NCBI GenBank assembly: GCA_047285805.1
Contig: JBJBCN010000002.1
Span: 672,001 to 736,000 of the forward strand
DNA length: 64,000 nucleotides
Origin: Synechococcus sp.
GTDB lineage: Bacteria; Cyanobacteriota; Cyanobacteriia; PCC-6307; Cyanobiaceae
Direction of reading: 5' to 3'
Position 1 is the stretch's first letter. The number at the start of each line of letters is the position of its first letter. The translations under genes were made by a program, and so were the position numbers. This document shows, piece by piece, positions 47,191 to 64,000 of this stretch. Below the pieces are notes generated by a model that searched no databases, had not been told where the DNA came from, and was given only the letters and a program-made list of their open reading frames with translations.

Positions 47191-48630
47191 ATGTTTACCG
47201 CGTACAGGCCAAAGAAGGGGTACGACGAATACTTCAACGCCGCAGATACACCGCGTTCGGCACTGAAGCCACTGGTCCATTCCCTCGGAGCTCTGGGACT
47301 GGATCATCTCAACCGAAACCATGCGGCTGCCGGGGTTCTTCTGAAACGGCTGGGTGCAACCTTCAGGTTGAACGACTCAGGTGGACGCGTGGGTGAACGG
47401 ATCCTCCCTTTTGATCCCCTACCGCGCTTGATTCCAGCAGGGGAGTGGGAGCAACTCGAGCGAGGCCTGGCCCAGCGCTTGGAGGCCATCGATCTGTTCT
47501 TGGCCGATGTCTATGGCCCGCAGCGGATCATCCAAGACGGGATCATCCCCCGGGAGCATGTCGAGAGTTCACAGGGCTGGAGACCGGTCCTGCAGGGGGT
47601 CAAACCACCTCTCGATAAGTGGTGCCAAATCTCTGGCCTGGACCTCATCCGGGATGGCGAGGGAACCTGGCACGTGCTCGAAGACAACCTGCGCTGCCCC
47701 TCCGGTGTCGCCTACTTCCTCGAAAACAGGCGGGTGATGAAGCGGATGTTCCCTAGCCTCTTTAGCGGGCGGGTCGTTCAGCCAATAGATCGCTATCCCT
47801 CACAACTGCTAAAAACCCTGCGGGAATTGGCTCCCTGGACGGAAACACCGCGGGTGGTCTTGCTCACTCCAGGGGTACTCAACAGCGCCTATTTCGAGCA
47901 CAGCTATCTGGCTCAACAAATGGGCATCCCACTGGTAGAAGGTCGAGATTTGGCCTGTGAAGAAGGCAGGGTATGGATGCGAACAACGCGCGGACTGGAA
48001 GCGGTTGATGTTATTTATCGGCGCATCGATGACGACTTCCTCGATCCCGCCGTCTTCCGCAGCGATTCGATGTTGGGCGTGCGCGGGTTGCTGGAGGTTT
48101 ACGCCCAGGGACGTGTCGCTATTGCCAATGCCCCCGGCACCGGCATTGCCGACGACAAGTTGATATATGCCTTTGTCCCCGACATGGTGCGCTACTACCT
48201 CGGCGAAGAGCCAATTATCGCGAACGTTCCCACCTATCTCTGCTCCAGGCGACAGGATCAGGCGTATGTACTGGCCCACCTCAGGGAGCTGGTGGTCAAG
48301 GCCGTCTCTGAAGCCGGGGGCTATGGAATGTTGATCGGCCCCCACGCCAGCAGCGACGAAATCGAAAAGTTCGCCGCCAAGATCCAAGCCAACCCCCGGA
48401 ACTTCATCGCCCAACCGACGCTGGAGCTCTCGACGGTCCCCTCGCTGAGTGACGGCGAGCTTTATCCCTGCCATGTGGATCTGAGGCCGTACATCCTCCG
48501 TGGCAACAGCACCTGGGTCACGCCCGGTGGCTTGACCCGCGTGGCTCTCAAGCGCGGATCGCTGGTAGTGAACTCCTCCCAGGGCGGTGGTTGCAAGGAC
48601 ACCTGGATCGTGGAGGACGGCCGATGCTAA
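47191..48630 (+). CDS. Circularly permuted type 2 ATP-grasp protein
   Basis: PFDPLPR, LEDNLRCPSGV, NSAYFEH, DVIYRRIDDDFLDP, VDLRP, VVNSSQGGG. Confidence 0.93.
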   Translation: MFTAYRPKKGYDEYFNAADTPRSALKPLVHSLGALGLDHLNRNHAAAGVLLKRLGATFRLNDSGGRVGERILPFDPLPRLIPAGEWEQLERGLAQRLEAIDLFLADVYGPQRIIQDGIIPREHVESSQGWRPVLQGVKPPLDKWCQISGLDLIRDGEGTWHVLEDNLRCPSGVAYFLENRRVMKRMFPSLFSGRVVQPIDRYPSQLLKTLRELAPWTETPRVVLLTPGVLNSAYFEHSYLAQQMGIPLVEGRDLACEEGRVWMRTTRGLEAVDVIYRRIDDDFLDPAVFRSDSMLGVRGLLEVYAQGRVAIANAPGTGIADDKLIYAFVPDMVRYYLGEEPIIANVPTYLCSRRQDQAYVLAHLRELVVKAVSEAGGYGMLIGPHASSDEIEKFAAKIQANPRNFIAQPTLELSTVPSLSDGELYPCHVDLRPYILRGNSTWVTPGGLTRVALKRGSLVVNSSQGGGCKDTWIVEDGRC

Positions 48631-49661
48631 GCCGCGTTGCCGACTCCCTGTATTGGATCAACCGCTATGTCGAGCGGGCTGAGAACATCTCCCGCTTTGT
48701 CGAGGTCAGTGAGGCGATGGCCCTGGACTGTCCTCCGGGTAGTGCAGAACCTTGGCAACCCCTCATCTATGCCAGTGGACATCGCACCCTCTTTGATGCG
48801 GTCTACCCCGATGGTGGGCCACAGAAGGTCGTCGAGTTCCTTGTGCGGGCGGAAGCCAACCCGAGCAGCATCGTCAACTGCATCGCCATGGCCCGGGAGA
48901 ACGCTAGGCAAATCCGTGATGTGATCACCAGCGAAATGTGGGAGCACCTCAACGGTCTCTACTGGACCCTGGTGGAGAACGAGTGTTTCTGGGAGGAACC
49001 AACCCAGGAGCAGCTCCGGGAGATTCGCCGAGGTTGTCAGCTTTTCTATGGCATCGCGGATGCCACGTTGAGCCGGGACCTCAGCTGGCAGTTCAGCAGG
49101 CTCGGCCGACTGATTGAGCGAGCGGACAAAACGACCCGCATCCTCGACGTGAAGTATTTCCTGCTGCTGCCCAGTCCCGATGACGTCGGTGGCGTGCTCG
49201 ACGAACTGCAGTGGATGTCTCTGTTGCACAGTGCCGGTGCCTATCAGATGTTTCGCCAATCCAATGTCGGTGACATCTCTCCAGAAGGGGTGGCAGCCTT
49301 TCTGCTGCTGAACCCGCTCTTCCCGCGCTCGGTCCGCTACTGCCTTGAGCGAATCCACGAGACCCTCCAGCTGATCGGCCGAGAATCCGCGCAGGGAACA
49401 CCCGATGACCTGGAGTGCAGGGTGGGACTTACGCAGGCCCGGTGGAGTTACACCAAAATCGACAAGCTGATCGCCGGAGGGCTGCATGAAGCCATCGATG
49501 AGTTGCAGCAGGACTTGAACGAACTCCACAACCTGATTCACGACCGCTATTTCGTCCTCCCTGGAGGCCTCAGCCCAGACGACGACACGGTGATCCCTAT
49601 GAAACAGAGCGCTTTAACAAACACGGCCTCTGATCAAGATCTGGCATGCACGCCCGCTTAA
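48624..49661 (+). CDS. Alpha-E domain protein
   Basis: MLSRVADSLYWINRYVERAEN, ARENAR, GRLIERAD, FPRS. Confidence 0.92.
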   Translation: MLSRVADSLYWINRYVERAENISRFVEVSEAMALDCPPGSAEPWQPLIYASGHRTLFDAVYPDGGPQKVVEFLVRAEANPSSIVNCIAMARENARQIRDVITSEMWEHLNGLYWTLVENECFWEEPTQEQLREIRRGCQLFYGIADATLSRDLSWQFSRLGRLIERADKTTRILDVKYFLLLPSPDDVGGVLDELQWMSLLHSAGAYQMFRQSNVGDISPEGVAAFLLLNPLFPRSVRYCLERIHETLQLIGRESAQGTPDDLECRVGLTQARWSYTKIDKLIAGGLHEAIDELQQDLNELHNLIHDRYFVLPGGLSPDDDTVIPMKQSALTNTASDQDLACTPA

Positions 49662-50518
49662 TACACCGCTTCAACTACTGCTACACCCAACCCGTCCTGC
49701 TGGGATCGCATCGCTTTTGCCTGCGGCCCAGGCCCCACGGCTTCCAACGCTTGATTGACTTCAAATTGGAGATCAGCCCCGAACCCAGTCAGCTCTACGA
49801 GCTTATGGCTGCAGGCGGTGACACGATTACGCGGGCTCGCTTTCTGCAGGAAACAGAGGTCTTTCAGGTGGTCGCGACCAGCGAAGTGGAAACCTTCACC
49901 CCACCGCTGATTGAAGCCTGTCTGGACGAGAGCATGCTGCGGTTACCACTCACCATCGGCAGGCTCAATCCGGATTTGATGAGCAACCTCCAAGGCTGGT
50001 TACCGAATGGGCAACACGATGCCGCCGCCGTCGATCTCGCCCAGGAAGCTCTCACGGGCAGCGACGGGAGTTGCTTGAGCTTCCTGCAACAACTCATCGA
50101 AATCATTCAGGACCGGGTGAAGTACACCGAGCGGCATGAGGGACCCGCTTGGCCAGCAGGTCAAACCCTCAAGGAGCGCATCGGCTCCTGCCGTGATCTC
50201 GCGATGTTGATGATCGAGTGCTGCCGCAGTGTCGGGCTTCCAGCTCGATTTGTCAGCGGCTATCACCTGGTAGAGCCCAAGCCGGGCCACTACGACCTCC
50301 ACGCCTGGACGGAGGTCTATCTGCAGGGAGCTGGTTGGCGAGGATTTGATGCCAGCGGACAAGGGGCGGTGGATGATCGCTACATCCCCGTGGTGACCTC
50401 CTCCAAATCAGAATTGACCGCGGCGGTGAGTGGAACCTTCTCCGGCCCAACAGGGGTCCAAAGCAGCTTGGCCTGGGAGATTGAGGCCGAACTGCTCAGC
50501 CCAGCCTCTCGCCAATAG
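49646..50518 (+). CDS. Transglutaminase-like protein
   Basis: GSCRDLA, ARFVSGY, HAWTEVY, GWRGFD (Cys-His-Asp triad). Confidence 0.92.
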   Translation: MHARLIHRFNYCYTQPVLLGSHRFCLRPRPHGFQRLIDFKLEISPEPSQLYELMAAGGDTITRARFLQETEVFQVVATSEVETFTPPLIEACLDESMLRLPLTIGRLNPDLMSNLQGWLPNGQHDAAAVDLAQEALTGSDGSCLSFLQQLIEIIQDRVKYTERHEGPAWPAGQTLKERIGSCRDLAMLMIECCRSVGLPARFVSGYHLVEPKPGHYDLHAWTEVYLQGAGWRGFDASGQGAVDDRYIPVVTSSKSELTAAVSGTFSGPTGVQSSLAWEIEAELLSPASRQ

Positions 50519-50523
50519 CGGCT

Positions 50524-51021
50524 CTACCAACTCACGCCGTGCAACTTGGGCAAGGGAGCACTGCGGTAGGTCGTCGCAAAGAGCCGAGGAATCAGCCTGC
50601 TGTTGTACACACGAAATTCACGGGTCACGCAGACGTCGGGCTCACGAATGGCCTGATTGAGGACCACAGAGCCCTCCTCGTCGGAGATCGAACGATGAAA
50701 CGTTCCTGGTGGAATCCGCAGGATGTCGCCGCCGGTGTCCAGACGAACAATGTGATACGGGTAACTCCAACCAAAATTGACCAGAAAGAAGACACGCCCA
50801 CCCGTGAGAGCGAGCAGGTTGTCCTCCTGGTGCGGGTGCAAATAAAACTGCCAGGCCCCCGTGTTGGCATCATCGGGTGGGCTCACCGCTGGCCCGCTGT
50901 GGATGACCAAATCGCGGGCGTTGGACTGATCAACCGTGATGTCGAAGAAACGAACCGCCGGCGTATCGCGGAACTTCTCGTAGGGAATCAGCTCAAACAT
51001 TTGAGTTTGGGATGACTCCAT
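50524..51021 (-). CDS. Cupin-fold protein
   Basis: FYLHPHQED, LRIPPGTFHRS. Confidence 0.75.
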   Translation of the reverse strand: MESSQTQMFELIPYEKFRDTPAVRFFDITVDQSNARDLVIHSGPAVSPPDDANTGAWQFYLHPHQEDNLLALTGGRVFFLVNFGWSYPYHIVRLDTGGDILRIPPGTFHRSISDEEGSVVLNQAIREPDVCVTREFRVYNSRLIPRLFATTYRSAPLPKLHGVSW

Positions 51022-51105
51022 TGACTGCCGAGCGCTGGCTCAATGAACCGCACACCGTTGTCGACGAGCAGTGTGCTGGGATACCTAATAGCGAATTACT
51101 GCGGG

Positions 51106-52308
51106 TCAACCCTCGAGCTGTCGCCCCCGCCAGGTCCAGCCACGGCCCGTGGTCGTCTTCCAGATGCTGGCTGGAACAATCGCGGCGATGAGCAGTGCAC
51201 CAAGCCAGCTCAACCACCAATAACGAGTGGGTGTGCCAAAGCGCCAGGCACTCCAAAGACGGATTGCCAAGACGAGGAGCAACGACGTCGTCACGACGGC
51301 CAGGGTGGGCATAGACACAGATCCCAGCAGCAACCACTGCAGCAGCAGGACCACTGCGGAAAGCCAAGGCACAGCGAAGAGCAGGAGCACAACACCAACG
51401 CTCCCAGCCGCTTTGAACCCGTTGCGATCCACCCCAAGAAACCAATTTTTGGTCCAGCCTTCCCAGAGGGCTGTGAAGGTGCGATACATATGCAGATCTA
51501 CCAAATCAACGCCGAGCATGTAACGCAAACGCAACTGTGATTGCTTGATCTTGCGCGCAAGGGCGAGATCTTCGACAACCTCCGAAGCGACTCCGCGGTG
51601 ACCGCCAATGGCTCGATAACTGGAATGGCGAAACAGCATGAACGGACCCGCCGCAAACGCCGTTGGGTCATCCGGATCGTTGCTACGGCGAATCGGGAAA
51701 CCAAGGCCAAGCAACGTGGCCACGATCGGTTGCACCAACCACTCCGCCAGACAACTGCACTCCAGGCGCGGTGCCAGGGTCAACAGATCACTCCTTTGCG
51801 AACACGCCTCCTGCAGGGCCGCTTCAATCACCCCTGGCCGCAGGCGGACATCGGCATCCAAGAAGAGAAACCACTGGCTTGAGAGATCAGCATCAGGCCA
51901 GGACAGGGCCGCGCCGACGCTGGCGGGCCAGTTTTTGCCTGACCACCGCTCGCCCTTAGGCCGGGGACCGGCCTGCACGATGCTCCAACGCAAATCATTG
52001 CGCGGGCAGGCCTCGCGAATCGCGTCGGCCAGGACTTGGGTGTCATCGCTGGAGGCATCGTCGATCACCACGAGCTCAATCGGCCAGTCCGCCGGTGCCG
52101 CCGCGACGATGGCCTGGAGACAGTCCGTGATGTTGTCGTGTTCGTTGTAGGCCGGCACGAGGATCCGCAGCCAGCTGCAACCCTCGGGCCGTTCCTGCGA
52201 GTCACTTGCCCTCAGCCGCGGCGCACGTCCCAGTTGCAGCTCAAGGGCCAACAACAACAGCAGCAAGCAGGCACTGCTGGCGCTCGCCAGCCAAAGGATC
52301 AGCGGCAT
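51106..52308 (-). CDS. Glycosyltransferase family 2 membrane protein
   Basis: VPAYNE, DDASSD, WSGKNW, FLDAD, EDL, EGWTKNW. Confidence 0.88.
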   Translation of the reverse strand: MPLILWLASASSACLLLLLLALELQLGRAPRLRASDSQERPEGCSWLRILVPAYNEHDNITDCLQAIVAAAPADWPIELVVIDDASSDDTQVLADAIREACPRNDLRWSIVQAGPRPKGERWSGKNWPASVGAALSWPDADLSSQWFLFLDADVRLRPGVIEAALQEACSQRSDLLTLAPRLECSCLAEWLVQPIVATLLGLGFPIRRSNDPDDPTAFAAGPFMLFRHSSYRAIGGHRGVASEVVEDLALARKIKQSQLRLRYMLGVDLVDLHMYRTFTALWEGWTKNWFLGVDRNGFKAAGSVGVVLLLFAVPWLSAVVLLLQWLLLGSVSMPTLAVVTTSLLLVLAIRLWSAWRFGTPTRYWWLSWLGALLIAAIVPASIWKTTTGRGWTWRGRQLEG

Positions 52309-53354
52309 AAGGCGCTGGTCAACACCCAACGGTGCAGCTCCAAGGTCGAGCGAATCGAGGCGATCACCTTGCTCTCCGGTGGTTGGTCTAGGGTTCGGCT
52401 CCACTGCTCGAGGCAGTTCGATGCCGCCGAACGAGAGGCGAGATCCAAAGCATCACAGTGCAACTGATCGGCACAAGCCTTGACCTTGGGGTCATAACTC
52501 AAAGCAGAGACGGGTGCACCGGACAGTGCCGCCAGGATCAGGGCGTGCAGACGCATCGCCAGAACCAACCCAGAGGAACGGAACACCGCCATCGCCTCCC
52601 TTGGGTTCTCCGCCTGGAGTTGACGGCTGCGCCGGGATAACGCCTCAGGGATGAGGCCCTCGTTGCGGAAGTGCTCGAGAAGGGAATGGTCCTGTTCGCA
52701 GTGGAAGGGAAGCCAGAGCACCTCGCGATCGGCCTGGGCCGCCAATTGATCAAGCGCTTCGAGATAGGGGATCCAATCGGAACCTTGAAGCAAAGGCGTC
52801 GGACGCCAGCAGACCACGATCGGGCCTCCACGGCCCAGCCACTGCTGTTGGGGCAAGAACCAGACCGCATCACCGGCATCCTTACCATCACAGCCAAGAC
52901 GGCGAGCCAAGGTTGCCGATTCCGGGTCACGCCAACTGAGGGCCGTGGTCAACGACAACAGGAGACGGACCAACGCACGGCTGCGCCGGCGTTTCAACGG
53001 GCCCAAGCCCTGGGCCCAAAGCACGACAGGTTTGCCCTGCAGGCGCGCCGCCATGATCAGAGCGCCGTAATAAAGCAGGCTCTTGAAGCTTGTGCTGTCC
53101 TGCAACAGGCTCCCGCCACCCAAGACCAAGGCCTGACAGGAGCGCAGACGAGCGAGAACCACCTTCAGGTCCCGTCGTTGAACGGTCTCAACGCCATGCA
53201 GCCGTTGAACTTGGCTCTGGTCAAAGGCCGTCACCACAGGGATGAGGGACTGGGGTAGTTCCCCAAGCAACGCCTGCAGCAAGGCGTCATCTCCCAGGTT
53301 GTGTTCGCCGTAGTAGCCGCAGAGCAGAACGGACTGGGGCACAGCACGCAACAC
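52299..53354 (-). CDS. csaB: Polysaccharide pyruvyl transferase
   Basis: CGYYGEHNLGDDALL, GGGSLLQD, AQGLGP, MRLHALI, YDPKV. Confidence 0.93.
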   Translation of the reverse strand: MLRAVPQSVLLCGYYGEHNLGDDALLQALLGELPQSLIPVVTAFDQSQVQRLHGVETVQRRDLKVVLARLRSCQALVLGGGSLLQDSTSFKSLLYYGALIMAARLQGKPVVLWAQGLGPLKRRRSRALVRLLLSLTTALSWRDPESATLARRLGCDGKDAGDAVWFLPQQQWLGRGGPIVVCWRPTPLLQGSDWIPYLEALDQLAAQADREVLWLPFHCEQDHSLLEHFRNEGLIPEALSRRSRQLQAENPREAMAVFRSSGLVLAMRLHALILAALSGAPVSALSYDPKVKACADQLHCDALDLASRSAASNCLEQWSRTLDQPPESKVIASIRSTLELHRWVLTSALCR

Positions 53355-53384
53355 GCATACCCAAGCTTCGCATCGATGCCAGCG

Positions 53385-53585
53385 CTAAGCAGCGGCCACC
53401 AGGCGCTGTCTCAGCAGAGGCAACTCCTCATCGATCCGCTCCCGGGCTAAATCGAGGGAGGAACAGGTGCCAAGGGAGAGGCCGCTGCGGTGGCGAATCT
53501 CAAAACAGTGGCGCTGATCGGGGGGAGCCAACAGCGCAATGCGGCAACCGCGATGAATCCAGGCAGGAGGCTGCTGTGATGTCAC
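53385..53585 (-). CDS. Small hypothetical protein
   Basis: WIHRGCRI...FEIRHRSGLSLG...ARERIDEELP. Confidence 0.5.
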   Translation of the reverse strand: MTSQQPPAWIHRGCRIALLAPPDQRHCFEIRHRSGLSLGTCSSLDLARERIDEELPLLRQRLVAAA

Positions 53586-53658
53586 GGATGAATCGAATGG
53601 ATCAAGTCCACTAGAGCGTTCACAGGACCAGTGATCAAGTTGCGGCCCGGAAGAAATC

Positions 53659-53853
53659 TCAAAGATTGGGAAGAAGTGCGGAGAGTTGCTCCTGAAATCC
53701 GCCCTTCGGCATGCCACCTTTGATCTCCCCTTTAAGGCTGAACTCGCCTTCTGGGTCTTCGACAACGAGGTAAGTCGGCCAGCCCATTCCTTCTTTCTTG
53801 GGGTACTGCGCCAACAGAACCTTGCGGTATTTCCGGTAGGTCTCCGTGTCCTG
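53659..53853 (-). pseudogene. Displaced 3' half of the thioredoxin-like gene (left att repeat)
   Basis: QDTETYRKYRKVLLAQYP...GWPTYL...GEIKGGMPKG with no 5' half; duplicates 62399-62584. Confidence 0.9.
53675..53853. repeat. 179-bp imperfect direct repeat, left copy (right copy 62406-62584)
   Basis: Manual alignment: about 10 substitutions and 2 one-base indels; ends in an identical 18-mer GTAGGTCTCCGTGTCCTG. Confidence 0.92.
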
Positions 53854-53964
53854 GCGTAGATGCGTCAACTTCCGAGAACCCGCTCCACGACTTCAGCTGC
53901 ACTGCAGCGGTTCTCGCTAGTTAGCTTTCCATAACGATCCGTATAGTCCAGACTAGGCACAGGC

Positions 53965-54315
53965 TTGGCACAGCCAGGGACCAAGAACCAGCGCGCTTTC
54001 AAAAAGCTGCTCGATAAGGCGAATGATCGCCTTGCTGGTGGGAAGCGGAAAGTACGAATAAATCTGCCTTCATTGAGCCACCGGACGTTATTTCTCAGAG
54101 CGACGCTTCCGCCGAAACCTGGAGAGCCGCCACGGGGCAACACACAGCAACGAATCCAGATCCCTTGCGAGGCATCTGCGCCAGGGTTGATCGAAGCGGA
54201 GAAACTCGCAATTCAGCTTGACGCAAGCAGCATTGCGACTGACAAAAGTGACCAATGCCACCAACCAATCGTTCATGCGCCGACTAAATCAGCCCGACTA
54301 ATGCCCTATGCCTGA
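53965..54315 (+). pseudogene. N-terminal remnant of a cyanobacterial XisA/XisC-like tyrosine integrase
   Basis: ANDRL...KVRI...LFLRATLPPKPG...QQRI...GLIEAEKLA; no catalytic domain follows. Confidence 0.75.
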
Positions 54316-54349
54316 GATGGTGCCAGGTATTGGGTGCTGATTTGTTGGC

Positions 54350-55377
54350 TTATTGGTGTGATTGTAGAAATAAAAAGCCCTTGCGTTTACAAGGGCTTTG
54401 GGTGGTTAGCCTACAAAACAGGTCTTCCCCTGATGGGTCTCTACGGTGTCTTTTTCGTGGTGGGTGTTGGCGCAAATCGTGCACCCGCACATCCCTATTA
54501 CTTAGCGTTGAGGTTAGGGCACTAACAGCGGCATTGGTTTTCAGTGTTTCTTTGCCAGGACCGCCATTGGTCTGGAAGCGCCACTTGATGTCTGCGGAGA
54601 AGCGTGACTTGAAGGCACTGTCATAAGAGAGGTTGGTGCCAACCGTTAGTCCGTTGTTGATGGCATAAGCGAGGCGACGCAAGACACCAGAGCCATCGGC
54701 TGCCCCTGCATCACCGTTTTGGTAGTAGTAACCAACAGATGCTCTTAGTGCTGGCGTCAGGTTGTAACCCGCATCTAAGCCATAGGTGTCTAGTGCACCG
54801 CCTTCATAGACGGTGTTGAGCTGGGAGTTGGTGGTGCCAGTGGGAAGGAGCGCATAGGCATTGAATGCCCACTTATCGCTCACCGCTTATGCATTGATGG
54901 CAGCCTGCTGGAAGAAGGCGGTGCGTGTGGCATAGACAGGGATGCCTGTATCCGCAGGACCCTTGCTCAAAGTGCAGGTGTCATAGCCCGCATTCAGTCG
55001 ATACATCCAACTGCGATCACCATTGAGCCAGCGATAGACCAAGCGAGATGAGGTGGAGATGGTGGTGCCAGCAACGGTGGTGTTGATGATGCTGCTGCTA
55101 TTACCCCAGTCCGAGAAGTTGGCATTCGCCAAGACATCAGCAAAGAAGACGCTGTTGCTGCCGACCACCATTGGAAGGAAGCCACACAGACCGGCTTGGT
55201 TGGGAGTGCCAGCGGCTTGCGTTTGCGCATGGATGCCGACCTGAGGTTTGACTAAGTCCTTGAGCTGAATGCTCATCACGCCCAAGTCACTGGCGCTGCT
55301 GTGCCCATCAGCTTTTGCAGGGAGAGTGGCGACTGCCAATGCAGATGCCATCACCCAATCGACAAGGTCCGCAACAT
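54350..55377 (-). pseudogene. Inverse-autotransporter beta-domain-like outer-membrane protein pseudogene
   Basis: MLRTLSIG, frameshift, MASALAV...DLGVMSI...AGTPNQAG...STSSRL.YRWLNGDRSWM...NA*AVSDKW (in-frame TAA 54887-54889)...RDVRVHD. Confidence 0.75.
54368..54399 (-). terminator. Hairpin with T-run on the minus strand
   Basis: AAAGCCCTTG-CGTTTA-CAAGGGCTTT. Confidence 0.6.
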
Positions 55378-55689
55378 CAGCACTGGTTTGTAGTTCCGCC
55401 GACGTTGCCATATGGAGAGCGCCGGTCTACTAGTCCTCAGTAAGCCGAAACGATGAGGGGATGGGGGAGCTATTGCACTCCCGCGCACGGACGCGCTGTC
55501 TTCAGTGCGCCTCCAGCTCGGTGATAGCGCTAGTGGCCTCAAAGGATCAACAAGGAGGGCGACCTGCCTGGCTATGTGGGCTAGAGACTTTTCCTACATC
55601 ACCCCCACCAGGGGCTTAGAGGAGTTTTCCCACATGGGCTAAGTAGACGTACCGATTGCAACGGCTACCGGTGCCGGCAGAATCAAGGC

Positions 55690-55749
55690 ATCCGGGACGA
55701 ATCCTGGGTAGGGAGATCTAGACCGCGGAGAAGCCACCGCGGTTTTTTT
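55690..55749 (+). ncRNA. Candidate small RNA 1
   Basis: CAGAAT -10-like hexamer at 55678; ends in an ACCGCGG/CCGCGGT hairpin plus T7; no + strand gene upstream. Confidence 0.45.
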
Positions 55750-55764
55750 ATGTCTACGGAAAAC

Positions 55765-56067
55765 TCAGTGCCCGGCGTGATCGCCTTCCTCGACGATGGA
55801 AACACTGACATTGCTGTGCGGCTCGCGGAGCGTTATCAGTTCCTGGTATTCAGTGGCGTCATAGGCAGCTTTCGCAGCAGCCAGGCTCTCGAATTCGATG
55901 ATCACGGTCAGATGGCCAGGGTTGCCTTCTCGAACATCAGTGTTCAGCTCTCGAACAAGGAAGCGTGCTCCGCATTTGGCGAGATAGGAGCCTGCAGCTT
56001 CGATGTAAGGCCCCATCCCTTCTGGGTTGGTGATTGAGCCCGCGACGTTCCAGTAGGCCTTGGCCAT
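55765..56067 (-). CDS. DUF1330 family protein
   Basis: MAKAYW...GARFLVR...EG...VIIEFES...YQELITLR. Confidence 0.88.
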   Translation of the reverse strand: MAKAYWNVAGSITNPEGMGPYIEAAGSYLAKCGARFLVRELNTDVREGNPGHLTVIIEFESLAAAKAAYDATEYQELITLREPHSNVSVSIVEEGDHAGH

Positions 56068-56214
56068 TTCCTTTTAGAAGCTCAGAGGATCCTTACACGC
56101 ATCTTTTGGATCAGATTCAGCCTTCCTGCCCGATAGGAGATCCGCAGGACAGTTCGCGGGCGGCAGGGAGTGTTGAGGTGGGGGCGACTGCGTCAGGCAG
56201 CGCCCCCGTAAGGA

Positions 56215-56487
56215 TTACGCGTAGATTTTGGCGATCAGCGGACCAGCTTCTTCGTCAGAGAGAACCGGAGTCACTTCCCAATCCAGGCACTCAGCCCACT
56301 CAGCCGCATGCTCGTAGCAAGCAGATGCATCATCCGCCTCAACAAGAATCCAACCTTGTACCGATCCAGGTGCGTGGAAGCGTTTCCAGGACTTGCACGC
56401 CGGGAAAGGAGCACCTGTCGCCATGAACTTTTTGGCGGCAATTTCGTGATAGCCGGTCTTGAAAGACCAGTGCATCAAAAAGGTCAT
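56215..56487 (-). CDS. DUF3303 family protein
   Basis: MTFLMHWSFKTG...RFHAPGS..GWILVEADD...EHAAEW...VTPV. Confidence 0.88.
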   Translation of the reverse strand: MTFLMHWSFKTGYHEIAAKKFMATGAPFPACKSWKRFHAPGSVQGWILVEADDASACYEHAAEWAECLDWEVTPVLSDEEAGPLIAKIYA

Positions 56488-57400
56488 GGAAAATTTGCTA
56501 ACCCACGCACAGTGACCGCAACGAAGTGAATCCATGCGTGTTAACCGCTACTGGCAAGCGTTTGCCTCTGGACCAACAGCTGCCCTAGCCACAGCTCGCG
56601 GCGGGGAATGTTGAGGAGGGGGGCTCCCGTATTGCCCCCCCTCCTGTATGAGAGAGAACCTTCTGCCCAGCACGAGCAGAAAGCCGTCGTGTTTTCCCTC
56701 CCCAAAACGGTATGAAGAGCGCATGTAAACGCCGGTTCTCGTAATCACTCCGATGGCATCTTTCAGTTACCAGCGTTTGTGCCCAACCAACATCTCCCCG
56801 ACTCACGGCTCAGTAACGCGGAGTGTTGTGGGGGAGCTTGGCACTCCCCCGTCTCGGACAACGACCTATGCACCGGTCGCTACCCCAGCTGTTATGGCTC
56901 TGGTCGACTCAGGAATGCAAGGGGCACCATGGAGGCACGACCAGCGGTCTAAACACCTGACTTACTGACCAGGAGCTGGCGGTCGAGTTCCGCTGGACAC
57001 TTCTCACCCGCTGGGGCGTAGGTGGCTTCAACGGGTAAGAGGTCGAGGGTGACGACTTCACCTGCAAGTGCGACCTATGCCGCAGGAACCGCCCCACCGC
57101 CTGGGGAAAGAAACATAGCTGATGGGATTCCTTGCTTTTCTTTTGGGCGCTAACCCAACCGTGACCGGAACGCCAGGATTCAAGTCGCCGACATGCCGGG
57201 CAGCTCACTGGGAGATTTGGAAATCACAGCGAACTGACCGGTGTTACGGGCTATCTCCGCCACGATTTCCTTCGGTGTTGCATACGTAGGGCCAAAGCAA
57301 GCAGTCCGAGAAAAGGCAGTGCTAGTCCAGTACTGAAGGACGGACGCGACTGTCGACGCCACTGCAAGTCGAATGGCTCAACGGGATACGCTGATGCTGC

Positions 57401-57414
57401 GTAGCGGTTGCTAC
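57401..57414 (+). promoter_or_regulatory. NtcA box just downstream of a -10 element (repressor position)
   Basis: GTAGCGGTTGCTAC; TACGCT at 57387-57392. Confidence 0.6.
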
Positions 57415-57423
57415 TGTTTGCGG

Positions 57424-57474
57424 ACGTTCGTTCCTCCCCTTGGGGAATGCATGATTTGGCAGCGAGGAACGGGG
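57424..57474 (+). ncRNA. Glutamine-II (Downstream-peptide) riboswitch-like leader
   Basis: CGTTC...CCCC-TT-GGGG...GCA...AGGAACGGG; CGTTCCT pairs with AGGAACG; sits upstream of an RBS and a short peptide ORF. Confidence 0.45.
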
Positions 57475-57496
57475 CTGTCATTTCGAGGCTCATGCC

Positions 57497-57598
57497 ATGA
57501 ATACACTCGCCCTCATTCGCGCCAAAATTCTCAAGGCCAAGCGTCTTGAGGAGGCTCAACTGGCCGGACTGAATCGCACCATGCTTCCTATCTTCTGA
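57497..57598 (+). CDS. 33-aa downstream-peptide-like small protein
   Basis: MNTLALIRAKILKAKRLEEAQLAGLNRTMLPIF; GAGG RBS at 57485; AAAGCG...CGCTTTTTT terminator-like sequence follows; too short for the ORF track. Confidence 0.6.
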   Translation: MNTLALIRAKILKAKRLEEAQLAGLNRTMLPIF

Positions 57599-58326
57599 TC
57601 GCAACTGCGTGAGCTCAAAGCGTCGTGCTGGGTCGCTTTTTTGGGCTTAACCGGGACTAGGGCAGCCCTTTCTGCGTCCATTGAGCGCAAGACGCAACCG
57701 CAATTACGACGCATTAAGGAAGGCCGCCTCTCCCCGGTGGAAGAGGCGGCCTACCTAGGTCGTTCATGCATGGGATACACCCATTTCTTGATGGACGAAA
57801 GATGGGTTCGGAGCTGCGGAGGGATGGCACCTGGGGCCATTGGTCCAGGTGTTGAGCGGTTGTCTCCGGAAGGGCACCTTGGACGATGCGGGTTGGAGTG
57901 TCGACAGTTCAGGCGTACAGATCAATGCCCGAACTGACGACCCACTCACGTCTTCAAAAGACTGTTGGAGCAGGGGCCATCAGTCAGCTCGCTCCTGCTG
58001 AAGCCTCAGGTGGAGTGTCGTTCATAAACGCCCCCGAAATCGATGCCAACACCATGCCCGCATAAGCGGCTTCTGGGCATCAGCCTTTTTGCGCATTGCC
58101 TTTCGAGGCCGATCGTCCGATAGTCAGGAAAGCGTGCCTGTGGTTGGAAGCCGCTAAGAGGCTCCACTCATCAGACGCCCTGAAGCTTCGCGGCGGTGCA
58201 TGACGCGATCGCCTGACTCTCTTGAAGGGGACTGGTTTTTCAGTGCATGAGGCAGCCTTCGGGTCGCCTTTTCTCTTGCCCCTTGGCATCCACCATGGGC
58301 ATTCTGGCTGCAGCCGCTTATAGGCC

Positions 58327-58527
58327 TTGCTTCGTCTGCTCATCGGGATCGGAGTCACCCTGCTTCCTCTGCAGTTGTGGTCGCACCCAAAGGGCATGTA
58401 TCCATCACAAGCGGCAGCGGCTAAGAGAGCTCAAGAGCTTGGATGCGAAGGAACTCATATGAATGAAGGGAAATGGATGCCATGCCTTGACGAGGCCTCG
58501 CTCCACCAAGCATTGCGAAAACAGTGA
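58327..58527 (+). CDS. DUF3721 family protein
   Basis: AAKRAQELGCEGTHMNEGKWMPC. Confidence 0.8.
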   Translation: MLRLLIGIGVTLLPLQLWSHPKGMYPSQAAAAKRAQELGCEGTHMNEGKWMPCLDEASLHQALRKQ

Positions 58528-58769
58528 ATCTTCGACGCACCCATCGAGTGATCGTGCCTGTAGCAGCCGTACCACTCCTTGTTATTTCCCTTTCAGGCTC
58601 GGTCTACAGCGGCTTGCTTGATCAAGGAATCGATGCCTTCTGGCTGTTAAGGCTGCATACCGGCCGGCTCGGACCAATTAATTTGCAGCCCTACTACTCA
58701 GTGATTCTTGGCCTATTGCCAATTGCATTGATTGCCTCTGGTGTATCACTATTGCTACCTAAAGGATGA
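58524..58769 (+). CDS. Small PepSY-TM-like membrane protein
   Basis: RRTHR...PLLVISLSG...WLLRLHTG; two TM segments. Confidence 0.7.
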   Translation: MNLRRTHRVIVPVAAVPLLVISLSGSVYSGLLDQGIDAFWLLRLHTGRLGPINLQPYYSVILGLLPIALIASGVSLLLPKG

Positions 58770-59198
58770 AGTCCAAGAAGTTCTACGTAGACGAAGGTCG
58801 CTTGAGTTGGGTCCTTCCATCCTTGACGAAGAAAAAGACAAAGTCGACCTAACGCAATGCTGATTACGCCCGAATCAGTCGTACTTAAGGGAGAGGTCTT
58901 CAGCGATGCGACTCGGATCGAGGGTCTGGACAGACCTGGCTGGACAAGGTTTCACACGTTGCAATATCACTGGCACAAAATACACTCCGGCCTCAGAAAG
59001 AACGTCGGAAGGGGTATTGGTAGGCGACTGGGGGAACCCAGCCACCACCACACGGATCGAGGAGTTCACGTCTCGTCCTCTGGAGTTATGGCAACGCCTA
59101 CGAAATGAGGCAACAGCGCTCCGGCCGCAGAACTCTCGGCTTTTTCCGTAGCTTGTTTCGACTGGTTGGGGCAGAATAATCCCAGCATCTCAACCTGG

Positions 59199-59657
59199 AT
59201 GAAGCGCCTTCTCGCATTCGGCACCATTGCCCTGACATTAGCTGCATGTAGTGCTAATCAAAAACCCCAAACGTCGCCCAATTCAACGAAACCTGAGATT
59301 CAGGAGGTCTTTAGTAGTGCTGAGACTTTGAATGGAACTGCTCTTAAGTACCCCTCAGGCAAACCAGAGCTGCGCCTCTACCGAGTTGAAATTCCTGCTG
59401 GAGGGAAGATTCCTCTCCATACTCACCCTGCTCCAATGATGGTTTATGTGCAAGGTGTCAGATCTGGTTCATTACTCAACACTCGAGTTCAGCCTGACGG
59501 GACTGAAGTTAAAACTGTTTTCAAGCCAGGTGAGGCATTTGTCGAAGGTGCCAATGAGCCTCATTACGTCGAGAATGTCGGCAAAGAGCCAACAATCGTT
59601 TGGGTAACAGCTGCTTCGGTCGAAGGCATGCCTACAACAGAGTTCATTGTCGAATGA
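59199..59657 (+). CDS. Cupin-domain lipoprotein
   Basis: LAAC lipobox; PLHTHP, GEAFVE...PH. Confidence 0.85.
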   Translation: MKRLLAFGTIALTLAACSANQKPQTSPNSTKPEIQEVFSSAETLNGTALKYPSGKPELRLYRVEIPAGGKIPLHTHPAPMMVYVQGVRSGSLLNTRVQPDGTEVKTVFKPGEAFVEGANEPHYVENVGKEPTIVWVTAASVEGMPTTEFIVE

Positions 59658-59693
59658 TTTCGACTTAGGTTGGCTGGGCTTGCGCAGGGCCTA

Positions 59694-60072
59694 CTACGGG
59701 CGCTTTTGGGGCTGAGCTGACATTCCGATGAGATTGTCGAGCTCGGCGATGCAAGCAACCATTGAGCTGGGTTGATTGGTCGCCAAGCTCTGTTGGGCAC
59801 CCTCCATCGACAGCCAGATGCACTGGGTCACGATCGCGGGGCGGTCGCACTCGCTGACCTCGAAGTCTTGCTTCAACAGGGCGTAAGCCTTCTTGACTGC
59901 GCGCTGGGCTGTGCGCCTGCTGCAGAAAGCACCCCCACCCCGCCGCCAGACGCGACCCAACGACACTGGGGCTGTTCCCGCGGCTGAGTAGGTCTAGAGC
60001 GGCTTCTACGCGGTAATTTAGTGCGGATTCATTGGTCTCTCCAGAGCCAGAGGAGGAGATTTCTGTAGGCAT
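59694..60072 (-). pseudogene. Frameshifted HTH-containing mobile-element protein
   Basis: RVEAALDLLSRG...LAAGWGC joins SRRTAQRAVKKAYALL... after an apparent 7-bp insertion near 59922-59928. Confidence 0.55.
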
Positions 60073-60259
60073 GAGCAAGCCCGACACCAGGTAGTGGTGT
60101 GAGCTGCTGGCTCATCTCTCTAGTGGTGTCGGTGTGTTCTGCTACCTCCATTGTTTCAGCAAGAGCGTTGGCAGCAATGACAAGTTGAGGTGAAATCACG
60201 ATTACAGCTCTTGCTCATGACTGGCGCGTCTAAGTCCATATGGACAAGATGGGCTTGTA

Positions 60260-61024
60260 GTGCCAAGCAATGCAGTGCTCCTACTTCGAGAAAAGATCTT
60301 TCGTTGGTTAGGGGAAGAAGAGAAGAACAGGACGACGAATCTTGGGAAAGCAATCGGTCTGGTGATCGTCTTTTCAGTTGGGCTCGCTGTTATTGCTACT
60401 GAGCCAATAGCACGAGACTCTTATGGCAGTCTACTGATAAAGCTTGATATAGCAGTTGCAGTGCTGTTTCTGGCTGAATACATCGTTAGGCTCTGGGTAG
60501 CCCCATTGAGAAAGGACGCCAGAGGAGGGGTAAGGGGTGCACTGGATTACGCGCTGACTCCTCTCGCCATTCTTGACCTGCTTGCAATTGCACCGACCAT
60601 TTTGGGTTTTGTGACTCCGGAGCTCTATCTTCTGCGAATCCTTCGCCTGGTACGAATAGGTCGCATTGGGCGCTCCAAGAGATTCAGGAAGAGTGTCAAG
60701 CACTTCAATCGAGCAATCGCATCAAAGAAGGAGGAATTACAGATCTCTGCTGTCTACACCGGAATCGTAATGTTTGTTAGTAGTGTTTTGATGTTTGTTG
60801 CGGAAGGGTCTGTCCAGCAAGAGCAGTTTGGATCGATCCCACGGTGCCTGTGGTGGTCAATTGTGACTGTGACAACCGTCGGCTATGGAGATGTTTATCC
60901 AGTTACGTTCTTTGGACGTGTTATCGCGGCATTGACTGCAATCTGCGGTGTTGCAGCGATCGCCATACCAATCGGGATTATTTCTGCAGGATTTACTGAG
61001 TCTCTCGGCTCCGAAAAGTCTTAA
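60260..61024 (+). CDS. Six-TM potassium channel (ion transporter)
   Basis: S4-like LLRILRLVRIGR; selectivity filter TTVGYGD. Confidence 0.92.
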   Translation: MPSNAVLLLREKIFRWLGEEEKNRTTNLGKAIGLVIVFSVGLAVIATEPIARDSYGSLLIKLDIAVAVLFLAEYIVRLWVAPLRKDARGGVRGALDYALTPLAILDLLAIAPTILGFVTPELYLLRILRLVRIGRIGRSKRFRKSVKHFNRAIASKKEELQISAVYTGIVMFVSSVLMFVAEGSVQQEQFGSIPRCLWWSIVTVTTVGYGDVYPVTFFGRVIAALTAICGVAAIAIPIGIISAGFTESLGSEKS

Positions 61025-61232
61025 AGAAGATTCTCGAATCCCTGCAGGGCATCAAAGAATTTCTCTGCGCACCTGGCATTAATGAACATGTATTTCTCGT
61101 AAAACCCTGACCGTGACCTGAGGGTGATTTCGCCAAAACTCATCAGCGGGAGCTGCCGATTATCGGTGTAACACTTGTCGCTGCCCCTTGAGCGCGTTAA
61201 AAAAGTCAGAGAAGTCCAACAACCCAAAACAG

Positions 61233-61598
61233 ATGCTTACTGATCAAGAACTGCTCGCCAAGGTCAAGGAGTTGGGTGATGCTCCAAAGACTGAGCTGGC
61301 AACCGCATGTGGATACGTCTCCAAGAAGAAGGACGGTTCAGACCGGGTGAACTTCACTGCCTTCTACGAGGCGCTCCTGAACGCGAAAGGCATTGACCTA
61401 GGCAATGGAGGCAAGAGTGTCGGGAAGGGAGGCAGGAAGCTTTCCTACACCGCAAAGGTTCAGTTCAACGGCAACCTGATGATCGGCAAGGCATACACCG
61501 CCATGCTCGACCTGAAACCAGGCGACGACTTTGAAATCAAATTGGGCAGGAAGTCGATCCGACTGATTCCTGTCGGTAGTTCTGAAGAAGAGGAGTAG
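61233..61598 (+). CDS. Cyanobacterial AbrB-like transcriptional regulator
   Basis: LLAKVKEL...ACGYV...NFTAFYEALL...GRKLSY...VQFNGNLMIGKAYT...FEIKLGRK. Confidence 0.92.
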   Translation: MLTDQELLAKVKELGDAPKTELATACGYVSKKKDGSDRVNFTAFYEALLNAKGIDLGNGGKSVGKGGRKLSYTAKVQFNGNLMIGKAYTAMLDLKPGDDFEIKLGRKSIRLIPVGSSEEEE

Positions 61599-61602
61599 GG
61601 AC

Positions 61603-61667
61603 AAAAAAAGAGGCGGGTTTCACCCCGCCTCAGGTTCTCCCTTGAAACCCATTCGAAGGTCTCGGAT
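61603..61667 (-). ncRNA. Candidate small RNA 2
   Basis: ATCCGAGAC...TGGGT...AGGGAGA, then a GAGGCGGG/CCCGCCTC hairpin with T7 on the minus strand. Confidence 0.45.
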
Positions 61668-61999
61668 CGATAGTGCGGCCAGGCATCAATCTATGACGTG
61701 CCTTTGGTCACCCATTGAGCCATGCGTGTGGCACTAAACACTCGGCCTGAGGTTCTCAGTGCAGTCAGTGGGCAGTGCCCCTCCAACGACCAGCCGAGAA
61801 AACCTCCATGGGATTACTAGCCACAGAGGTTTGCGCTCACAGCGACTGCGTCTGCGCCGTGCTGTCCGAAAAGATTCGAGACCAGTTTTGTGCTGGCGGA
61901 AACCGTCTGCAGCTCAGGCGACTGAGACCTGCTGTAGCTAAAGCTGCCTAGGTGCCGCTTGCACTTGCTGATGCCGACCCATTGAGAAGAGCCATAAGA

Positions 62000-62088
62000 T
62001 AAAAACCCCCGACTTCGAAACTAAGACGTCGGAGGGGTAATGGGCGGGCTCAGGGAGAAATCAGGGAGAGTGTTAGCTCCCCGGCGGA
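62000..62088 (-). ncRNA. Candidate small RNA 3
   Basis: GGGGAGCTAACACTCTCCC hairpin, two TCTCCCT motifs, terminal CCGAC/GTCGG hairpin with T5. Confidence 0.35.
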
Positions 62089-62398
62089 TCGCTTGGACTC
62101 GCCAATCAGCGTTCCTACGATCATTTATGGCAAAGCCCATTGGGGTGGTGCGAGGGCTTGTAAAGAAGCTCTACTGCGACTGCACACCCGCATACTGGCG
62201 CTTGGTACCAAAATGAGCCATAACCAAGGTCTGCCGTGCAGTGCATAGGGTGAGAGAGGAGCCTGGTGATGACCGGCTTTTTTCTTGTCAACACATCAGA
62301 TGGCCGACCCACTGCTCACTAGTGGGAAGTGGAAGGACTATCACTCGGCTTGAGCCACAGGCAAGCGGACTAATTAGGCACAAAATCAGGCACAGGGC

Positions 62399-62701
62399 TC
62401 AGATCAGTGCCGAGAGTTTGGTCCTGAAATCCCCCTTCGGCATGCCGCCTTTGATCTCCCCTTTAATACTGAACTCGCCTTCTGGGTCTTCGACTACGAG
62501 GTAAGTCGGCCAGCCCATTCCTTCTTTATTGGGGTACTGCGCCAACAAAACCTTGCGGAATTTCCTGTAGGTCTCCGTGTCCTGAAGCATTACGCTGACA
62601 AAGGTGCACCCCAACTCTTCGGTGACCTTGCTGTCGTAATGACTCATCCGGTGGCAGGTGCCGCAATCCTCGGAGCTGAACTTGAGGACCGTGAGTGTCA
62701 T
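62399..62701 (-). CDS. Thioredoxin-family (CGTC) protein; the integration target
   Basis: LKFSSEDCGTCHRMSHYD...GWPTYL...GGMPKGDFR. Confidence 0.88.
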   Translation of the reverse strand: MTLTVLKFSSEDCGTCHRMSHYDSKVTEELGCTFVSVMLQDTETYRKFRKVLLAQYPNKEGMGWPTYLVVEDPEGEFSIKGEIKGGMPKGDFRTKLSALI

Positions 62702-62725
62702 GCCAGGAGATGCAGCAGACACAAC

Positions 62726-62908
62726 CTAGTGGCACTGATCGAAGCTGATGTCACCTAAGAAACAAACATCGAGAAGACGTTGCAAAGCCGCCGCACGGGA
62801 GGGCAAGCCCCACTGCTCTTTGAGGGCATCCAAACGAGCTAAGTGAACAAGGCGGATGTCGCAGGTGACCTTGACACGCTCGTCACCCAGAAAAGGAAGG
62901 CTGTGCAT
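62726..62908 (-). CDS. Small ribbon-helix-helix-like protein
   Basis: VKVTCDI...LDALKEQWGLPSRAAALQRLL. Confidence 0.55.
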   Translation of the reverse strand: MHSLPFLGDERVKVTCDIRLVHLARLDALKEQWGLPSRAAALQRLLDVCFLGDISFDQCH

Positions 62909-63164
62909 CTCCCTCGCGAATCGCTGCCGCAACAATGGCCGCGATCAAGGGGATGTCAACGCAAGACCGGAACCGGCAGGTAGGCAGGTGCGAAGCTGCA
63001 GGCCAGGGCGAGCTGCCTAAGGGGCACACCAAAGACGGTGCTCACGACATCGATGGCAACGCGGGACAGCAACCGACCAACACTGTTATCCCAATTGTAA
63101 AGAGACGTAAAGCAGAGCTGAGGTTGCGGGTGTCAGGTCCGCAATCGGTCCAACGGGCGGGGGG

Positions 63165-63989
63165 TTAAGGCGAAGACTCAACGTTGAAGCCGGTGACTTC
63201 CTGCTTGCTGTCCAAGCGGTCGGCCAGGGGCCTCGCTTCTTGGGCCAGCTGGCGTTTCAGCAGAACCCGGTCGGTGACATCCCGTTGGACGGACACCCAA
63301 TGGGTGAACCAACCCGAGGAATCGGCTAGGGGTGAGACCTTGAGCTCAATCCAACACGTGGATTGATCACGCCGGTAGTTGATGACCTGCATCGTCGCGG
63401 ACTTCCACTGGTCCATCGCCGCCCGCAGCGCAGCCGTGCTCTCCTTTGAGGTCTCAGGCCCTTCGAATAAACGCGGACTGCGGCCCAACACCTCATGCAG
63501 GGCGAAGCCGGTGTGCTCCAACAGGGATTTGTTGGCGTAAACAATGATCGGACCAGGGGCGTCCAAGGGTTCAGCCAAGGTCTCCAACACAGCGTCCTGG
63601 GCGGTATCCAACACTCCTTCAAGAAGGCGCCGATAGGCGTCTTCGTTTGTTTCCGCGGGCCCGGCATCCAGGCGCTGGGCCCGGCGCCGCAACACACCGA
63701 CCCCAAAGCCAGAGTCCGAGGCAAACAAGCGAATCCGCGTGGCCAACTCCACACCGGTGGGGTGAGGAAGGGGCAGGACATGGTCCCTGGCTCCTTCGGC
63801 TAGGCGCCTGTGCTCTTGGACAATCAGGTCAGCCAGCTGTGGCCAGCAGTCGTGGATGGGTTGACCGCACCACTCCTGGGCGTGATGCCCCAAACGCTGC
63901 TGAACGCCTCGGTCCACATGGGTGATCACACCGCGCGCGCCGCAGAGCACCAAACCATCCCCGGGCTCCAGCAGGAAGAAAGGGTGCAT
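63165..63989 (-). CDS. PAS-domain protein (two PAS domains, no output domain)
   Basis: IVYAN...TGF...EVLGRSPRLFEG...NYRRD...W...VSVQRDVT. Confidence 0.85.
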   Translation of the reverse strand: MHPFFLLEPGDGLVLCGARGVITHVDRGVQQRLGHHAQEWCGQPIHDCWPQLADLIVQEHRRLAEGARDHVLPLPHPTGVELATRIRLFASDSGFGVGVLRRRAQRLDAGPAETNEDAYRRLLEGVLDTAQDAVLETLAEPLDAPGPIIVYANKSLLEHTGFALHEVLGRSPRLFEGPETSKESTAALRAAMDQWKSATMQVINYRRDQSTCWIELKVSPLADSSGWFTHWVSVQRDVTDRVLLKRQLAQEARPLADRLDSKQEVTGFNVESSP

Positions 63990-64000
63990 CTGAACAACCT

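Follow-up and report, generated by a model that had tools for sequence, protein, structure and literature searches.

In the genome of Synechococcus sp. (GCA_047285805.1), a stretch of 64,000 nt (contig JBJBCN010000002.1, positions 672,001 to 736,000), here called the window, very probably contains the grounded remnant of a small integrative element lying in a gene for a thioredoxin-like protein. As judged from sequence comparison, the attachment site of the element (attP) would have carried a spare 3' half of the gene, which keeps the gene reading through. The mechanism is already known from e14 in icd and from the dusA islands, and it is well supported that the novelty lies in the target gene and in the integrase clade. 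In what follows, G stands for genomes (G000 being the 2.37-Mb genome of the window), L for fetched loci (L080 and L081 being metagenome contigs), P for proteins and X for sequencing runs.

Results

The 3' end of a thioredoxin-like gene is present twice

The thioredoxin-like gene lies on the minus strand of the window (62701-62399, 100 aa). It is an intact open reading frame (ORF, 62399-62701), 96% identical to the alleles found at empty sites in relatives. At its codon 40 begins a direct repeat of 179 nt, the copies of which occupy 53675-53853 and 62406-62584 at a spacing of 8731. A preliminary description of this DNA had reported such a repeat about 8.7 kb apart, with about 10 substitutions and 2 indels counted by eye and similarity that ended after an identical 18-mer. 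Alignment bears this out. Without gaps the copies differ at 19 positions, and gapped BLAST gives 93.3% identity over 180 columns, which corresponds to about 10 substitutions and 2 gaps of one base each. Since the first mismatch stands at 53835, the identical block comprises exactly 18 nt, and similarity stops at the end of the block. This block stands at 53836-53853 on the left junction, where it probably marks the crossover region, and at 62567-62584 on the right junction (attL). It contains a dyad, AGGA-7 bp-ACCT, whose meaning is only a guess, and it is kept in 8 of 25 alleles of the genus. Beyond the second copy, no further DNA copy of the gene was found in the whole genome. The duplication is not an obvious mis-assembly, because the run from which the genome possibly derives has contigs that span both junctions (no difference in 53767-54573, one in 62498-63300); this contig check is not independent of the assembly.

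The target protein is conserved in cyanobacteria, with a match in 37 of 61 genomes drawn from relatives and in 175 of 401 drawn from the family. Atlas assigns it to the 'thioredoxin family' with near-maximal confidence, its Pfam thioredoxin matches stay below cut-off, and no match was obtained among PDB sequences. The C13-G-T-C16 motif, with C13 and C16 invariant in 30 aligned rows, lies in the host-derived 5' part of the gene (codons 1-39, 62585-62701, minus strand). Sequence comparison suggests that codons 40-100 and the stop (62399-62584, minus strand) are the half supplied by the element; it completes the gene and ends in SALI-stop.

Relatives have an empty site, and the two copies differ in polarity

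In G023, G033 and G036, window positions 48000-53853 and 62405-64000 form one continuous alignment whose two parts overlap at the repeat, as expected of an empty site. The gene, a small ORF and csaB follow one another in the same order in G062. Thus the empty site that the preliminary description had proposed to look for exists in these four genomes. The host flank downstream of the target gene is formed by csaB (52299-53354, minus strand; TIGR03609 above cut-off, syntenic in relatives) and by the small conserved ORF (53385-53585, minus strand; tblastn 74-95% in L002-L004, 80% in G062), which directly follows the thioredoxin-like gene in the empty-site relatives.

The left copy (53659-53853, minus strand, attR side) has the LPNL-stop tail and the following DNA in common with the empty-site alleles, and for this reason we take it as the displaced host end, as first suggested. 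It shows the changes N to K and I to L and a compensating +1/-1 frameshift, and the NCBI entry for it is a 69-aa protein (P0044). The right copy ends in SALI-stop, three codons earlier than the host tail. A similarly short tail is present on L081 (ALV-stop) and on a 62-aa fragment, P0043, and on none of the 112 host-type homologues matched by pattern (119 representatives read). These comparisons support the assignment of the left copy as displaced host end and of the right copy as bearer of an element-type tail.

Second matches in four other genomes were tried as occupied sites and rejected: that of G021 is a 32% paralogue, that of G002 is degenerate with stops, that of G307 lies at a contig edge and that of G212 has another breakpoint. 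The last one (G212:C142, L087:1485-1632) is a 148-bp, 98% identical duplicate of the 3' end of the gene from residue 57, located beside recA, and the locus as fetched contains no integrase; it reflects another breakpoint or an assembly artefact. Separately, a contig of a metagenome-assembled genome (G019:C1:1-124, L084) stops after 7 bases of the att identity block, and no 3' half was found in that genome, possibly owing to an assembly break at a variable junction and possibly by chance.

An integrase stub adjoins the displaced end

An ORF that starts at 53965 on the plus strand, 112 bp inside the left copy (about 110 bp had been estimated), shares 87-88% identity with the N-terminal end of P0001, a tyrosine recombinase of 386 aa. 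Similarity ends at about 54225, after some 86 residues, beyond which the ORF extends through unrelated DNA as far as 54315. The core-binding and catalytic domains are gone; no C-terminal part of the integrase was found in the window or in the rest of the genome, and the genome has no close intact copy. In the predicted structure of P0001 the N-terminal domain is a helix-three-strand-helix fold, and the stub (53965-54225) appears to coincide almost exactly with this predicted DNA-binding domain. Metagenome contigs of one study (X4, X17) continue past the point where the window integrase is cut. Among them, a 647-bp contig of X17 (aligned to 53816-54225) reaches over the left junction by 38 bases into the gene and, in the other direction, continues past the cut; X17 and X19 gave almost identical pieces and were not treated as independent.

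By predicted fold, the full-length relatives are tyrosine recombinases: Foldseek on the model gave XerA (E 1e-5), lambda Int and Cre as top matches, and P0002 matched the phrog_1 integrase (E 9e-7). Of the catalytic residues, R256, K277, R339 and Y371 are invariant in the seven rows of the clade, but the two usual His are replaced by Y336 and N362. The integrase clade of the window stub is rare: a profile search of 1.84 billion representatives yielded only two near neighbours, P0055 and P0056. One cluster member is the full-length WP_010317127.1 of Synechococcus sp. CB0205. In a quick tree of 52 rows (L074 left out), five close homologues form a clade (100), which P0055 and P0056 join (99), apart from a tRNA-adjacent clade (100; 26 tRNA-adjacent rows). 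A scan of genome contigs with P0001 gave one weak unrelated match only. Five protein scans of viral contigs, four with integrase queries (P0001, alignment A4, P0056, P0055) and one with the half-gene, gave no confirmed relative; the phage collection gave no match, and plasmids one weak 43% match annotated as tyrosine recombinase. Elsewhere in the genome of the window (G000:C2:879149-879448) there is another degenerate integrase N-terminus, 36-42% similar and with a stop; no tRNA lies in the fetched locus.

One could imagine that excision works as a regulated switch, either exchanging two functional C-termini or restoring the gene in the manner of the heterocyst Xis elements. The +1/-1 changes of the left copy do stay in frame to the host stop, and the database lists a protein for it. 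However, the gene is already whole while the island is integrated, the integrase has lost its catalytic domain with no close intact copy in the genome to replace it, and no X1 excision joint is present among the 15 of 64 joints listed. We regard such a switch as very improbable.

Full-length integrases lie beside the same half-gene

A metagenome scan yielded two loci, L080 and L081, from 190 candidate stretches. Both encode a full-length integrase of the clade, with a thioredoxin-like 3' half about 120 bp upstream, and in both the half-gene similarity ends at the same base as in the window. The preliminary description had raised the question of whether full-length homologues also abut this gene, and these two do so at the same breakpoint. 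Together with the empty sites, they support the proposal that a protein-coding redox gene serves as the bacterial attachment site (attB). L081 matches the right inner flank of the window (behind the stop codon) and the left inner flank, joined around the half-gene. It is attP-shaped and may be an excised circle or a tandem-array joint. Among the pieces listed when contigs of four runs were aligned to L081, none bridges the attP joint. Neither the window site nor L080 and L081 contain a tRNA gene.

In L080 (5.3 kb, incomplete), the integrase is followed by an excisionase-like helix-turn-helix (HTH) protein (HTH_17, below cut-off), a zinc-motif protein, an AAA_25 ATPase (above cut-off) and DUF4326. 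This gene layout looks satellite- or tycheposon-like; no phage structural gene, terS or capsid gene could be assigned in the incomplete 5.3 kb. None of these accessory genes (HTH, zinc-motif, AAA, DUF4326) is left in the window. Homologues of the zinc-motif and AAA genes (41-52%) occur elsewhere in the same genome, at G000:C2:163349, 551023 and 1338921; the first lies about 2 kb from tRNA-Ala(ggc), which suggests other tycheposon-like remnants.

These loci also bear on the simplest alternative, a host duplication or an ordinary island insertion with an integrase fragment adjacent by chance. In its favour, two thirds of the interior of the window element is generic island DNA, and the unrelated G212 duplicate has no integrase in its fetched locus. 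The alternative is largely refuted by the divergent full-length integrases that adjoin this half-gene with an identical breakpoint, and by the match of L081 to both inner flanks. We give it hardly any credence.

Tandem TAGGCA repeats mark the inner edges of the island

A tandem TAGGCA(CA)-type repeat (53954-53972, plus strand) overlaps the start of the integrase, and a tandem TAGGCACA-type repeat (62375-62395, plus strand), conserved in L081, stands just behind the stop codon of the replacement half. Both are putative arm-type sites. The tandem (T/C)(A/T)GGCACA, a pattern drawn from these very sites, has exactly two occurrences in the 2.37-Mb genome, 53954 and 62375, which are the inner edges of the island; it is present also in L080 and L081. 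A looser form, TAGGCA-N5/6-TAGGCA, lies close to the start in 24 of 29 related integrases (L051-L079) and in none of 29 control windows. A tRNA adjoins 27 of these 29 integrases (Arg-cct, Ser-tga, Leu-taa, Met-cat, Cys-gca, Pro-ggg). The tandem TAGGCA is a candidate family-wide arm site of picocyanobacterial integrases. By analogy with the known role of arm-binding domains (PMC8138268), the repeats would be bound by the N-terminal domain of the integrase, and since one of them overlaps the integrase start codon, the integrase might regulate its own expression. A scan with the arm pattern gave two loci in viral contigs and one non-self match in 395 genomes, none of them with the gene or the integrase.

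Two further observations concern this motif. The genome of the window has a third TAGGCA tandem at G000:C2:582691. In L072 (900-1560), inspection by eye shows in succession what looks like the end of one integrase, part of a tRNA-like stretch, arm repeats and another integrase, likely a tandem-array joint at a tRNA site.

The replacement half is nearly host-like

Compared with G033, the right copy has five synonymous changes and one non-synonymous change (Y48F) in 150 nt, and its tail changes from LPNL to I. Because only one residue and the tail change, the gene chimera appears to be a repair, with no sign of altered protein function; on the same counts, the idea that the swap created a functionally new protein was rejected. 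The swap of the C-terminal ~60 residues that had been proposed holds in that the replacement half completes the gene, but it was nearly silent. The element-borne halves (window right copy and L081) differ at 19 of 31.7 synonymous and 9 of 118.3 non-synonymous sites, and this synonymous excess fits purifying selection on the half-gene.

In a half-gene tree (28 rows, 150 columns), both window copies group with the G023/G033 alleles (support 100/100), away from L081, and a clade of the element-borne halves is rejected (p-AU 0.02). As the window half goes with the host alleles, the spare half seems to track these, by re-capture or by homologous recombination. The description of the gene as a host/element chimera has to be narrowed in the same sense: the right copy does have the short element-type tail, but its half groups with host alleles and not with L081.

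The tree would also fit a variant in which the same element entered, or was later overwritten, through host homologous recombination within the shared 179-bp stretch, the right copy then being partly host DNA with only its tail element-borne. The closeness of both copies to G033 (5 of 152 bases differ for the left, 6 for the right) points the same way. Nevertheless, the right copy has private changes from repeat base 19 onward, two lineages break at the same base, both sides have kept arm-like repeats, and re-capture of host alleles by the element lineage explains the tree equally well. We consider this variant rather unlikely.

The island interior is probably accreted and the proposed element is dead

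Between the junctions, GC content is 54%, compared with 61% for the genome, and of the 8552 interior bases 5694 are matched by paralogues in other parts of the genome, compared with 0 and 47 in two control stretches. The paralogous blocks of this mosaic, accreted interior span 54315-62341. Therefore the DNA that can be shown to be original amounts to no more than about 370 bp at the left end and, at the right end, to the half-gene with a few dozen bases beside it, and the interior genes cannot be called cargo of the element. The claim of an integrative element is supported, but in this genome the element is dead and overwritten: its integrase is cut at about 54225 and its interior is accreted.

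The interior begins with a multi-copy island gene (54350-55411, minus strand) without a Pfam family above cut-off, which is split by an in-frame stop where a paralogue reads through; at least nine stretches of the genome resemble 54315-55409. It is followed by DUF1330 and DUF3303 genes (55765-56487, minus strand), by DUF3721, PepSY_TM-like (below cut-off) and cupin genes (58327-59657, plus strand), all by Pfam, and by an ion-channel (Ion_trans) gene with an AbrB-like regulator (60260-61598, plus strand; Pfam). Promoter and terminator scans were at chance level.

Discussion

The following course of events would account for these observations. A tyrosine integrase would act at codon 40 of a thioredoxin-like gene that is conserved in cyanobacteria, the crossover falling inside a 16-18-bp identity block. 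The attP of the element would carry the spare 3' half, so that the gene would read through after integration, and the N-terminal domain of the integrase would bind tandem TAGGCA repeats on both sides of the core in attP. The original body was presumably satellite- or tycheposon-like, with excisionase-like HTH, zinc-motif protein and AAA ATPase as in L080; it would later have been deleted, and island DNA would have accreted between the two att ends. In this scheme the redox-active CxxC would always stay host-derived, and the spare half would be kept nearly host-like.

Besides the rejected clade of element-borne halves, several points weigh against an integrative element as the explanation. Recombination was not observed. 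Only two clearly different lineages, the window and L080/L081 (N-termini about 75% identical), show the link, because L080 and L081 scarcely differ where they overlap. Genomic context comes from a single lineage among the five close homologues; the contexts of P0001, P0024, P0026, P0038, P0055 and P0056 lie outside the comparison. L081 could be a tandem-array joint instead of an excised form. No other occupied site was found in 174 further genomes with the gene (E<=1e-12), and in 400 family genomes no integrase exceeded 34% identity (best non-self match 34%). Finally, Y336 and N362 of the clade stand at the positions of the two His in a XerC-like chain, so that the activity of these integrases is putative.

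Many attB sites lie in protein-coding genes (PMC12884075). In E. coli, e14 inserts itself into icd, provides a new 3' end for it and leaves behind a pseudo-copy of 163 bp (PMC6379469), and e14 and phage 21 are both tabulated at icd (PMC12540744). Likewise, the element described here would use a protein-coding site, supply a 3' end, leave the displaced end as a pseudogene (179 bp compared with 163 bp) and change the protein conservatively. It differs from e14 in target gene, host phylum and integrase clade; moreover, its relative L080 shows no phage structural genes in its 5.3 kb, and the window element is grounded.

A second precedent comes from dusA-associated integrases, which are widespread in Proteobacteria. 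Islands in dusA replace the 5' end of the gene; the island supplies the replacement sequence and the displaced piece forms its outer boundary (Farrugia et al., PMC4482086). Here too, an integrase family appears tied to one protein-coding gene, with an island-supplied replacement and a displaced piece as outer boundary. However, the window element replaces the 3' 60% of its target, and it is rare. As in the gene-restoring elements of the icd/e14 and dusA type, attB is empty in relatives, and the element copy completes the ORF, the host part standing at the far end. XisA and XisC are cyanobacterial tyrosine recombinases that also act at a protein-coding gene, and their elements interrupt the gene until excised. 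Unlike in those excision elements, the target gene here remains whole with the island inserted.

The tycheposons of Prochlorococcus and Synechococcus are described at seven tRNAs, and some non-tRNA-associated integrases are mentioned (Hackl et al., bioRxiv 10.1101/2020.12.28.424599). They resemble our element in island growth by decay and accretion and perhaps in the L080 module of integrase, excisionase-like and helicase-like genes; moreover, the nearest genomic relatives of the integrase adjoin tRNAs (27 of 29) and have the TAGGCA repeat in common. Unlike tycheposons, the element has a protein-coding target, no tRNA at the site or in L080/L081, and its own integrase clade in the quick tree. 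In Synechococcus elements at tRNA-Phe, the integrase lies at the distal end beside the remnant (Grebert et al., PMC8995045), and so does the window integrase beside its displaced remnant. In KplE1, the att region overlaps the start of the integrase gene intS, a layout linked to autoregulation (PMC2951348). The att-side repeat of the window overlaps the integrase start in the same way, but the KplE1 target is a tRNA gene and the window integrase adjoins the displaced fragment.

The passages seen of PMC11876622 and PMC2441476 name no such site. In the literature searched, no description of this target or of the TAGGCA motif was found; the search did not extend to most subscription papers, to the supplements on tycheposons or to the TIGER database, where the site may be catalogued.

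In summary, no new mechanism is revealed. Our results add a protein-coding attB and an integrase clade to a group with islands described as tRNA-seeded, and attB, attL, attR and an attP-shaped junction are all in hand. They place the model of island seeding, by arrival, decay and accretion between att ends, at a non-tRNA site, and for many picocyanobacterial integrases the tandem TAGGCA predicts an arm site that can be tested. Genome engineering of Synechococcus could make use of a native integrase/attB pair by which the target is left intact. Tentatively, and with more doubt than confidence, we suggest that a rare satellite- or tycheposon-like lineage left tRNAs for a protein-coding redox gene, kept the TAGGCA arm code of its tRNA-targeting cousins and refreshes its spare half from each host lineage. 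If so, this lineage would shuttle C-terminal alleles between Synechococcus lineages and seed an island where none is normal, and the tandem TAGGCA would generally mark the att ends throughout the integrase radiation.

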